From: Gammaproteobacteria bacterium
GTDB taxonomy: Bacteria > Pseudomonadota > Gammaproteobacteria > Eutrophobiales > Eutrophobiaceae
Assembly (NCBI GenBank): GCA_965215365.1
Contig: CBDCDS010000003.1
Coordinates: 64,001 to 128,000, forward strand
Reading direction: 5' to 3'
DNA length: 64,000 bases
Within the stretch, counting starts at the first letter, position 1; each line of letters opens with the position of its first letter. Position numbers and translations under genes: made by a program. Below are positions 42,838 to 45,157 of the stretch, piece after piece. The notes under the pieces are model-generated. The model was not told the DNA's origin, did no database searches, and saw only the letters and a list, made by a program, of their open reading frames with translations.

Positions 42838-42928
42838 TTGATTTTTAAGTGCAATAATAAATTACATTTTTGGACAGCGCTCTGCTATGCTTGCTGCCGT
42901 GCAGGGTCAAGCTCTGGGGGATTGCGCC

Positions 42929-45157
42929 ATGTTCAGATACATATTCGGCTGTGTGGGCCGTTGCTTGGGGGCGCGCCTGCCGGCGCCTGTGCGATGGGTT
43001 CTGCCACTACTGTTTCTGGTGGCGCCGCCAGCCTTTGCACAAACCGAACGCGCGCCGTCTTTTCCCCCTGGCACCGAAATCGGTGAGCTGGTTTTCAAAA
43101 AAGGTGTGCCCACAGGCGACATTGTCCTGCCGTCAGCCAGGGGGGGTGATGTTGATCCTGCAATCAATAACGGTGAACTCAGCGATTACAGCTTCGATCC
43201 GGCAAAATTACCGCCCGGCCTGGACTTTAACCGATTTACCCGCATCCTCAGCGGCACACCGAAATATACCATGCAGAAGCGAACCTATCATTTGTGGGTG
43301 CACGACGATGACGAGAACTGGTCGAGGTCTGATGCAGATTCCCTGCATTTCAGTATTGAAGTCATGGATGACAAGCAACAAACCGCCGTAAACAGCGTTG
43401 AACAGGCCGCTAAAGAAGAGGTCGCAAGTGCGCCGGCCAGGTTTGCCGCCGATTGACGATTACATCTACTATCAGCAGCAGGACTTGAAGAGGTCGCAAG
43501 TGCGCCGGCCAGGTTTGCCGCCTCCTTCGAATCCGAATTCCAATGGTTCAATAAGGATAAAAGACCCGGACTGTCAGGGGCAACTACATGGAACAGTACC
43601 GTTTGGCGCGGAGAACGCATACAGAAGCACATCCTGGTGACGCGCGCATCATCACGCGACAGGATTTCCATCAGCGCCGGTGATTTTGAAAGCCCGGCGG
43701 GCGTTATCCCGGCTGAGGCGTTGACGTTTCGCTATCCGCAATTTGTCAAGGGCGATATTGAGGCGCGTGATTGTGAAGGCTACCCGCAGCGCGCCGAAGC
43801 CGTATTTCTGTCCGACGCGTTGTTTCCACAACAGCCGCGACGGCAGGCGGGTTCCTATCCGGTCATGATCTGGGCGTCAATCGATATACCGGCGGACTCC
43901 CGACCCGGCGAGTATGTCGGCAATATTACCGTGAGTGCAACGTCAGGAGAGCAGCAAACCCTGCAGGTGGCATTGCGTGTGACACTATGGGCTATGCCCT
44001 CTCAACGACCGTTCCATTTGGACCTCTGGCAATTTCCCGTATCCGTGCTGGACCGTTACAACGATGCCAACGCAAGAAAGATAAAAGTCTGGTCTGAGCA
44101 ACACTATGCATTGTTGGAACCCACCTACCGCTATCTCGCAGAATTAGGCCAGCGCACTGTTACCACCTATATCAAGGAAGGCGCGTTTGCCGCGCCGTCA
44201 ATGATCCGCTGGATTGCCTTAGAGGGCGGCACGCGCTGGGATTATGACTACGCTGTGTTTGATGCACATGTCGAGCGTCTTGCCGAATGGGGTATTGATG
44301 ACCAAATCAGCGCGTTCTCCCCGATAGGGTGGAACAAGGATGAGCTGCCCTTTTGGGATGCAGCCACCGGCGCCAGTAAAGTATTCAAGTACAGTATAGG
44401 CTCAAAAGAATATAACGCCTTGTGGAACCACTTTCTCACCGATTTCAGAAAACATCTGGTTGAAAAAGGCTGGTTTGAAAAAACCGTGCTGTATATGGAT
44501 GAGGTGCCCAAAGAAGAAATGGAGTCGGTCATCGGTCTGATTCGCTTCAATGACAAGGATTGGAAAATCGGTCTGACCTACGGCCATGCCCCGGGAGTTA
44601 ACGTCATCGCCAGTCTGTATGACGTATCCGGATACTACGAAAGCGAAATTGAAGTACAGACGTACCCGGGGCAGGTCACCACGTTTTACACCAGTTGCTC
44701 GCTCCAACGCCCGAACAACTACGTGGCCGCCGATGCCAATCCGGCGGACATGACGGCCATGCCCTAGTATGCCATGTACCGGGGACACGACGGTTATTTA
44801 CGCTGGGCCTTCGACAACTGGAAGTCTTATGAGCCGCTGGACTTGCAGGAGGGCTCGTTTACAGCAGGCGATTTTTCCTTCGTTTACCGAAGCAGCAACG
44901 ACAAGGATATGACCATGATACCCAGCGTCAGGTCGGAACTGCTGCGGGACGGCATTGAGGATTATGAAAAGGCGCTGACACTGTACAAGACGATGCTGAA
45001 ATGCAAAAAAGAGGATTTACTGAGCGGTCTGGAGGAGACGATCAACACTTTTTCAACCGAGCGGTTGCTGGCCGGACAGGCGAGTGAGCTGATCATCCAG
45101 GCGCGTAGGCAACTGCATGAACTATCACAATCGACAACGCCTGACCTGTGTCAATAG
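42929..45157 (+). pseudogene. Secreted Ig-like (He_PIG) plus GH123/DUF4091 beta-N-acetylgalactosaminidase-like gene with two in-frame stops
   Basis: Three ORF pieces in one frame; LPPGLDF...LSGTP; WRGER, HLDLWQ, YMDE, TFYTSC, GYLRWAF, LRDGIEDYEK; TGA at 43454 and TAG at 44765 (the paralog has TGG). Confidence 0.85.
43415..43522 (+). repeat. Perfect 36-bp direct repeat flanking a 36-bp unrelated insert
   Basis: gaagaggtcgcaagtgcgccggccaggtttgccgcc at 43415-43450 and 43487-43522. Confidence 0.95.

Follow-up and report, generated by a model that had tools for sequence, protein, structure and literature searches.

A 36-bp piece of a host receptor gene between two copies of its target site suggests natural off-target CRISPR spacer integration in a gammaproteobacterium

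Introduction

How does a gene come to hold 36 bp of its own coding sequence twice, with an unrelated 36-bp insert in between? This question is raised by a structure, here called n1, at positions 43415 to 43522 of the 64,000-nt stretch that we analysed (hereafter the window; contig CBDCDS010000003.1, positions 64,001 to 128,000 of the forward strand) from a gammaproteobacterium of the Eutrophobiaceae (assembly GCA_965215365.1). It lies in a gene predicted to encode a secreted glycosidase of glycoside hydrolase family 123 (GH123). A preliminary description, made from the letters of the window, had proposed that n1 is either a scar left when the Cas1-Cas2 integrase of a CRISPR system (named for clustered and regularly interspaced short palindromic repeats) inserted a spacer at the wrong place and inactivated the gene, or a reversible switch operated by recombination between the repeats. 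Off-target integration that spawns such "neo-CRISPR" arrays has been described by Nivala, Shipman & Church 2018 for the E. coli type I-E system with over-produced Cas1-Cas2 (via bioRxiv 10.1101/148544, PMC6698737, PMC7054753, PMC11788318), and the evidence from two other species in that work is described as circumstantial (via bioRxiv 10.1101/148544).

We examined n1 in the context of the whole host genome, which is assembled as 2.73 Mb in three contigs with 58% G+C; coordinates prefixed C3 refer to one contig of this genome (G000). With a probability of roughly 88%, n1 appears to be a full-site off-target spacer integration by the host's CRISPR adaptation integrase, that is, a natural single-spacer "neo-CRISPR". 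This part of the preliminary description is supported by the lengths of the repeat and the insert, a donor in the host's own genome, recurrence at other sites, the presence of cas loci, and contigs that read through the junctions.

Results

Anatomy of the duplication

A repeat search found the same 36 nt, running from GAAGAGG to GCCGCC, twice, with 100% identity and a start-to-start spacing of 72 (Table 1). The bases directly outside the two copies are unlike on both sides (A and T before, G and T after); therefore the duplication is exactly 36 bp long and so is the insert between the copies. This insert is unrelated in sequence to the 36-mers that flank it, and no inverted repeat was reported at it in the repeat search. 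A perfect duplicate of a 36-mer at a distance of 72 nt is something that chance cannot produce. The added 72 bp are in frame with the GH123 gene and bring in a TGA codon. Read in the frame of the gene, the region encodes ...EEVASAPARFAA D*RLHLLSAAGL EEVASAPARFAA SFESEFQWF..., where the asterisk is this TGA; in a longer readout of the frame the residues ahead of D*RLHLLSAAGL are ...AAKEEVASAPARFAA. Both the repeat-insert-repeat arrangement and the in-frame addition carrying a stop codon were thus as first described.

The insert matches a host receptor gene

We found one other copy of the insert in the genome, 2.25 Mb away on the minus strand at C3:2360856-2360891, with 36 of 36 positions identical. 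It lies within an open reading frame (ORF) of 825 aa that contains Plug and TonB_dep_Rec_b-barrel domains, where the segment encodes ...NRIDDYIYYQQQDLNGDG.... The identity of the insert with this source breaks off sharply at either border and does not extend into the flanks, and the junctions show no microhomology. The perfect match to the host's TonB-dependent receptor gene, against two to three mismatches to the orthologs of three congeners, indicates that the receptor gene is the donor and that the event occurred in the host lineage. The insert had at first been taken for foreign coding DNA because it can be read as IDDYIYYQQQD. This peptide is indeed found in the +1-shifted frame, but the DNA that encodes it is the host's own coding DNA and the idea of a foreign origin was dropped.

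A comparison of the insert with its source also brought out a possible protospacer-adjacent motif (PAM). In reverse-complement orientation the donor reads ...CCGTTT/AAGTCC...CAATC/CGG..., with slashes at the borders of the copied segment, and so has a 5'-TTT flank. We consider this flank to be modest evidence that favours the type I-G module of the host, which contains Cas4. We also considered the insertion of an insertion sequence (IS) or transposon with target-site duplication and rejected it: the insert is an internal fragment of the receptor gene that has no reported inverted repeat.

Two CRISPR-Cas systems with spacers of similar length

If an adaptation integrase made n1, the genome should be able to provide one. 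Profile matches to Cas1 and Cas2 occur together at two loci, of type I-G and type III-A, and both genes are present and apparently intact. Locus A (C3:474889-492000) is of type I-G and encodes a Cas4g/Cas1g fusion of 572 aa, Cas2, Cas3g with an extension protein, Csb2, and Cas7g. Array A contains 37 repeats of 37 nt, with the transcribed-sense end ...ATTGAAGC, and 36 spacers that range from 35 to 39 nt (37 nt in 12 cases and 36 nt in 11). The Cas4/Cas1 protein of the host aligns over its full length with Cas4/Cas1 from G. sulfurreducens (PDB 7mi4; E 2.4e-216), its nearest relative of solved structure. The host protein keeps the residues that align with D87, K102, and E380, the positions mutated in the G. 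sulfurreducens study (PMC6547450). Locus B (C3:1068000-1084250) is of type III-A and encodes Csm1-5, Csm6, a CARF protein, Cas1, and Cas2, the last two at C3:1079686-1081615, with no Cas4 in the module. In its array, array B, we count about 32 repeats, again of 37 nt, and 31 spacers of 31 to 38 nt, most commonly 36 nt (10 of 31).

The insert, with its sharp junctions, therefore has the length of a spacer in either array. The preliminary description, which knew of no cas gene in the window, had proposed that the genome be checked for cas1, cas2, and arrays with repeats of about 36 bp. These were found, with 36-nt spacers common in both arrays; the repeat length agrees to within 1 nt but not exactly, the duplication being 36 bp and the canonical repeats 37 nt. 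A third CRISPR-Cas locus with 36-nt repeats was considered and rejected, as there was only a 90-aa remnant of the N-terminus of Cas1 and no array. No orphan copies of either CRISPR repeat occur in the genome outside the arrays.

The arrays also show that the host samples its own DNA. Spacer 18 of array A (C3:476178-476213) matches C3:645672-645707, just upstream of dnaN, at 36 of 36 positions. Since this is a perfect self match, the adaptation machinery of this host takes up chromosomal DNA. Self-derived spacers number 1 of 36 in array A and 0 of 31 in array B.

Similar structures recur with the same period

We scanned the whole genome for comparable structures in two ways: for exact repeats of 20 nt or more at a spacing of 40-120 (k=14 seeds) and, in a relaxed form, for pairs with an unrelated gap and a spacing of 60-85 in which at least 30 of 34 positions match. 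Once we had excluded both arrays, tandems of the coiled-coil or low-complexity type, and a single member of a larger repeat family, three clean two-copy structures remained genome-wide, n1 and two that we call n2 and n3, all with a period of 72. No other clean structure was present at spacings of 60-85 nt; the lone extra two-copy candidate, with a spacing of 63, belongs to the larger repeat family.

The second structure, n2, is at C3:1190469-1190580 (L026:2970-3081), outside the window. Taken as repeat plus gap it appears as 40+32. Its gap, together with the shared edge bases, matches C3:2503717-2503753 at 36 of 37 positions, which is compatible with 36+36 and makes a DUF547 gene the donor, with a TTT flank in one register. 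At the one mismatched position it is the neo-spacer that has changed, for the ortholog of a congener agrees with the donor. The structure lies in the linker of an ORF for a Ser/Thr kinase, which stays open and gains 24 residues in frame. The third structure, n3, is also outside the window (C3:2240836-2240941; L027:2837-2942). It is intergenic: a promoter is predicted upstream of the gene for S12 (rpsL), and n3 sits about 15 nt upstream of that promoter's -35 box. No donor for n3 was matched in the host genome or in phage records, and no empty site was available, the closest relatives diverging just before the site. The search for like structures elsewhere in the genome thus yielded two more with period 72, one of which has a second self-derived spacer.

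These results bear on whether n1 could be an accident of repair or replication that involved no Cas protein, in which template switching or the repair of a break captured a filler sequence and the 36-bp duplication arose by chance. Templated filler insertions are known from repair. Such an accident, however, predicts no duplication of the target, still less one of repeat length, and n1 has no microhomology at either target-source junction. It would also have to account for three independent structures of period 72, two of them with spacer-length copies of the host's own sequence, in a genome with no comparable clean structure at other spacings between 60 and 85 nt. We regard this explanation as highly improbable.

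Some further observations on the genome are recorded here. Two inverted copies of a perfectly identical tandem array with a 72-nt unit are present at C3:2120406-2120841 and C3:2323419-2324214, with 6 and 11 units plus 4 nt. Within every unit there are two 22-nt hairpins together with a shared 24-mer, and hairpins abound in the flanks as well. These are full tandems and not repeat-spacer-repeat structures, despite the period of 72. A sequence of about 110 nt that begins at the stop of the kinase ORF (L026:3291-3400; C3:1190790-1190899) occurs at 17 other places in the genome with 97-100% identity, and another element of about 110 nt beside n3 recurs in the host genome and in genome G006. Recurring elements of this kind suggest a reduced genome (2.7 Mb, compared with 2.6-5 Mb in most congeners) that is rich in IS elements or miniature inverted-repeat transposable elements. 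We also looked for a bias of the donors toward the replication terminus and set this aside, as the GC skew is too scrambled to place the origin or the terminus. Uptake sequences of the Neisseria type are almost absent from the genome.

Read support

We used Logan contigs (k=31) to ask whether sequencing reads support the structure. The stretch was recovered from five runs, which belong to two studies and three samples. In run X1 the unitig across the junction of copy 1 and the insert (43421-43480) has a depth of 39.8 and the one across the junction of the insert and copy 2 (43457-43516) a depth of 41.5, with 43.9 in the left flank, 41.8 in the right flank, and 80 in the repeat unitig. In run X2 the same two junction unitigs have depths of 156.3 and 157.5, the left and right flanks 143.4 and 143.5, and the 36-nt repeat unitig 310; in run X4 the corresponding values are 95.1 and 106.7, 150.8 and 123.1, and 189. 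Both junctions are thus bridged by separate unitigs at about single-copy depth in X1, X2, and X4, and the repeat and insert unitigs are deeper. In X4 the junction unitigs are shallower than the flanks, and contig depths of this kind cannot establish a mixed population. Run X5, from the other study and with another organism label, has a single contig that runs from 42800 through copy 1 into the insert as far as 43480. No differing letters are listed anywhere in the contigs of the runs.

Short repeats are prone to mis-assembly and n1 might in principle be an artefact of assembly or sequencing. The recovery of the stretch in five runs, two studies, and three samples speaks against this, as do the junction unitigs of X1, X2, and X4, whose depths are near those of the flanks or somewhat lower. 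An artefact is scarcely credible.

The interrupted gene

The gene that contains n1 is in three open pieces of one frame. The piece before the TGA is 189 aa long and has a start that resembles a signal peptide followed by a He_PIG Ig-like domain. The piece after it, of 436 aa, contains the GH123 N-terminal (Glyco_hydro_123_N_2) and catalytic domains. The match to GH123_cat is split at profile positions 8-246 and 258-320, and the break falls at a second stop codon, a TAG. A congener (G001; 76% DNA identity) has an intact ortholog of 750 aa with Trp at the position of this TAG (...AAMPWYAM...). This ortholog holds the duplicated segment once, as ...TADTFAASFESEFQWF..., also given as ...AKVTADTFAASFESEFQWF...; that it is intact and has a single copy indicates that the single-copy state is ancestral. 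From its sequence, the GH123 gene of the host is a pseudogene whose single frame carries exactly two lesions and is open elsewhere.

Table 1. Features of n1 and of the gene around it, with positions in the window
Feature	Position	Strand	Evidence
Copy 1 of duplicated 36-bp target (candidate neo-repeat)	43415..43450	+	100% identical to 43487-43522; flanking bases differ
36-bp insert (candidate neo-spacer)	43451..43486	+	Exact copy of G000:C3:2360856-2360891, minus strand (TonB-dependent receptor gene)
Copy 2 of duplicated 36-bp target (candidate neo-repeat)	43487..43522	+	Repeat search
Predicted secreted He_PIG + GH123 glycoside hydrolase pseudogene, three open pieces of one frame	42887..45157	+	Frame and domain matches
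In-frame TGA from insert, first predicted inactivating lesion	43454..43456	+	Translation; ORF 42887..43456
Second lesion, TAG at ortholog's Trp (..AAMPWYAM..)	44765..44767	+	Comparison with G001 ortholog

The second lesion weighs against the other proposal for n1, a programmed on/off switch of the GH123 gene. Perfect 36-bp direct repeats that are 36 bp apart could recombine or slip and so excise 72 bp precisely, and the addition is in frame. Removal of the 72 bp does reopen the frame locally, as the preliminary description stated, but the protein would still be truncated at the TAG, where the covering contigs of X1, X2, X4, and X5 show no differing letters. Thus, excision leaves the gene broken. 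In addition, the spacer consists of a random stretch from another gene, and 3 kb downstream there is a GH123 paralog. We saw no empty allele, though contigs with k=31 could not have shown one. A reversible switch is therefore unsupported, and we consider it even less probable than a Cas-independent accident.

Around the GH123 gene is a cluster for the use of glycans with genes for GH20, KDPG (2-keto-3-deoxy-6-phosphogluconate) aldolase, 2-keto-3-deoxy-galactonokinase, the GH123 paralog, and a TonB-dependent receptor. An ORF of 127 aa on the opposite strand matched no family. Exact scans with the 36-mer for empty or filled alleles elsewhere gave 0 matches in metagenome contigs and 0 in genome contigs, from which records of the host's own genome were possibly excluded. 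A search for loci related to the GH123 protein returned 13, and since the best had 52% identity these are too distant to serve as an empty site.

Other features of the CRISPR-Cas loci

Three further observations concern the CRISPR-Cas loci themselves. The 90-aa Cas1 N-terminal fragment (C3:1530969-1531196; L011:3961-4233) adjoins an IS transposase, a DUF2442 gene, and an AbiEii toxin gene, and probably remains from a CRISPR-Cas locus that was lost. Within the type III-A locus, at C3:1077000-1081720 (L010:13141-17718), a MntA/HepT toxin-antitoxin pair lies between csm5 and the CARF gene, and the adaptation block is unusual in that it comprises a Cas2-like protein, Cas1, a 254-aa protein that matches only the N-terminus of Cas1, and Cas2. 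Several spacers of both arrays (C3:474889-477620 and C3:1081905-1084250) resemble genes for pentapeptide-repeat proteins, on opposite strands, and there are weak matches of array spacers to pentapeptide-repeat genes in Ralstonia phages and plasmids. These could reflect a recurrent family of targets or an artefact of composition.

Discussion

How n1 may have formed

We infer from these results that a Cas1-Cas2 complex of the host was the cause of n1. A 36-bp prespacer would have been cut from the host's own TonB-dependent receptor gene, and its two 3' ends would have attacked opposite strands of the GH123 gene at points 36 bp apart. Repair of the gaps would then have duplicated the intervening 36 bp to give target-spacer-target with no extra bases. 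The TGA that the insert brings into frame would truncate the glycosidase after its Ig-like domain. A ruler element within the repeat sets where the second integration takes place (PMC6895254). Slack in such a ruler at a non-cognate site may have led to a duplication of 36 bp instead of 37, and a departure of 1 nt at a site that has no ruler element seems plausible.

The product is a mutational scar and not a working array, because its neo-repeats have neither hairpin nor leader. The neo-repeats of n1, n2, and n3 lack hairpin potential (z of -0.12, 0.62, and -0.54, respectively, versus -2.97 for the repeat of array A), and n1 has no such fold, no similarity to the repeats or leaders, and a single spacer. 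Its neo-repeats would not be expected to be recognised by a Cas6-type enzyme and should not be processed into CRISPR RNA (crRNA). No autoimmunity would then be expected, and the cell's tolerance of a self spacer with a TTT flank would be accounted for.

Which complex

Two complexes could have carried out this integration. The type I-G Cas4/Cas1-Cas2 complex appears to be the likelier agent because of the TTT flank of the donor, and it takes up somewhat more than half of the overall probability. The same kind of event catalysed by the type III-A Cas1-Cas2 is, in our judgment, rather unlikely. Repeats of array B are also 37 nt long with 36 nt as the commonest spacer length, and the borders of the n1 neo-repeat (G...C) are those of repeat B, those of repeat A being A...C in crRNA orientation. 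A type III-A Cas1-Cas2 from T. profunda integrates extensively off-target in vitro without HU (PMC13769266). Against the type III-A complex, the TTT 5' of the protospacer of n1, and of n2 in one register, fits a TTN PAM selected by Cas4, a protein that its module lacks, and the lone self-derived canonical spacer sits in the type I-G array. All three DNABII genes of the host are intact, which gives no hint that a fidelity factor was lost; loss of IHF or HU was rejected on the same grounds.

Points that weigh against integration by Cas1-Cas2

Several observations weigh against spacer integration as the origin of n1, or against parts of this reading. The duplication is 36 bp and the canonical repeats of both systems are 37 nt. 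The target sites of n1, n2, and n3 have no convincing similarity to either leader-repeat junction. Within the 45-nt flanks on the "leader side", n1 and n2 have TGAACC some 23-29 nt upstream, and TGAA is found near -25 in each of the two leaders; given the number of comparisons made, this is too weak and we do not claim a shared target motif. For the PAM, chance alone would place TTN at one of the ends in about 12% of cases by our own arithmetic. Array A does not help here, for searches of phages, plasmids, and 41 genomes of the family yielded no protospacers that would define the PAM of the host's type I-G system, matching only related arrays and pentapeptide-repeat look-alikes. The one self-derived spacer of that array, spacer 18, has a source flank of GAT and not TTN, which may be the reason that it is tolerated. 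The third structure fits least well, as n3 is exact at 34+38 and becomes 36+36 only with one mismatch; it is a weaker case than n1 and n2. Run X5 is uncovered at 43481-43508. Finally, no empty allele from the same species is available, and the contigs cannot show one: the 36-nt repeat exceeds k=31, and an empty allele therefore adds no new words to them.

A wider reading and why it matters

Taken further, the three structures may mean that the type I-G integrase is a recurrent endogenous mutagen that has inserted fragments of host genes, chosen by PAM, at three or more non-CRISPR sites, that the constant 36-bp duplication reveals a ruler intrinsic to the enzyme, and that the scars are snapshots of the birth of CRISPR arrays. 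We offer this only tentatively and give it slightly less than an even chance. Were it true, integration would have killed a glycosidase gene, lengthened a kinase by 24 residues in frame, and left one scar beside the rpsL promoter. The constant duplication of 36 bp, set against repeats of 37 nt, would show a ruler uncoupled from the anchor motif of the repeat, and the three scars would be natural snapshots of how new arrays are born.

What makes n1 notable is the combination of three events in one genome, two traceable donors in the host itself, and visible effects on coding sequence. Off-target integration has been seen mainly with over-produced E. coli Cas1-Cas2, and the natural examples are described as circumstantial. 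Structures like n1 raise the question of how often CRISPR adaptation damages or remodels host genes. They also raise the questions of what sets the length of the duplication away from the cognate repeat, whether PAM choice by Cas4 persists off-target, and whether arrays can be born by this route. For annotators, the signature of a repeat length, a spacer length, and a repeat length again, with a period near that of the arrays, offers a way to recognise scars of this kind elsewhere.

Comparison with known systems

As proposed for n1, the target duplications of IS elements, transposons, and casposons arise from staggered cuts and gap repair that leave direct repeats around an insert. Those duplications are about 2-15 bp long, and the element between them has terminal repeats and a transposase. 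In n1, by contrast, 36-bp repeats flank a 36-bp gene fragment without inverted repeats.

Self-targeting spacers in arrays resemble the insert of n1 in that they derive from the chromosome, and the type I-G array of this host has one. The insert differs from them in its location, which is outside any array and between repeats that are not CRISPR repeats.

Canonical type I-G adaptation is a closer parallel. The type I-G system (formerly I-U) of G. sulfurreducens acquires mostly 36-bp spacers, and an upstream TTN accompanies 50% of the unique spacers and more than 80% of the total (PMC6547450), spacer-side integration by the type I-G system of M. barkeri is correct in only 60-70% of events even on the cognate repeat (PMC10504553), and the type I-G repeat of T. 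sulfidiphilus is 36 nt long (PMC9638904). The insert of n1 shares with these systems (G. sulfurreducens, PDB 7mi4; M. barkeri) a 36-bp spacer and a closely related enzyme in the host, and the 5'-TTT flank of its source would fit TTN, the PAM of the G. sulfurreducens relative. It differs in that integration was not at a leader-repeat junction, 36 and not 37 nt were duplicated, and the target has no resemblance to a repeat.

The closest match is the neo-CRISPR of Nivala 2018. A search of a limited collection of literature found no natural ectopic integrations in a type I-G or type III-A host. There, a spacer-length fragment is placed at a non-CRISPR chromosomal site with a repeat-length duplication of the target, and the event can seed a new array or damage a gene; n1 resembles it in this. 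The case described here differs in being natural, with three events in one genome whose host carries type I-G and type III-A systems with 37-nt repeats. It also differs in that two of the spacers can be traced to the host's own genes, with one gene knocked out and one kinase extended by 24 residues. The kind of event has thus been described already, and n1 is a further natural case of it.

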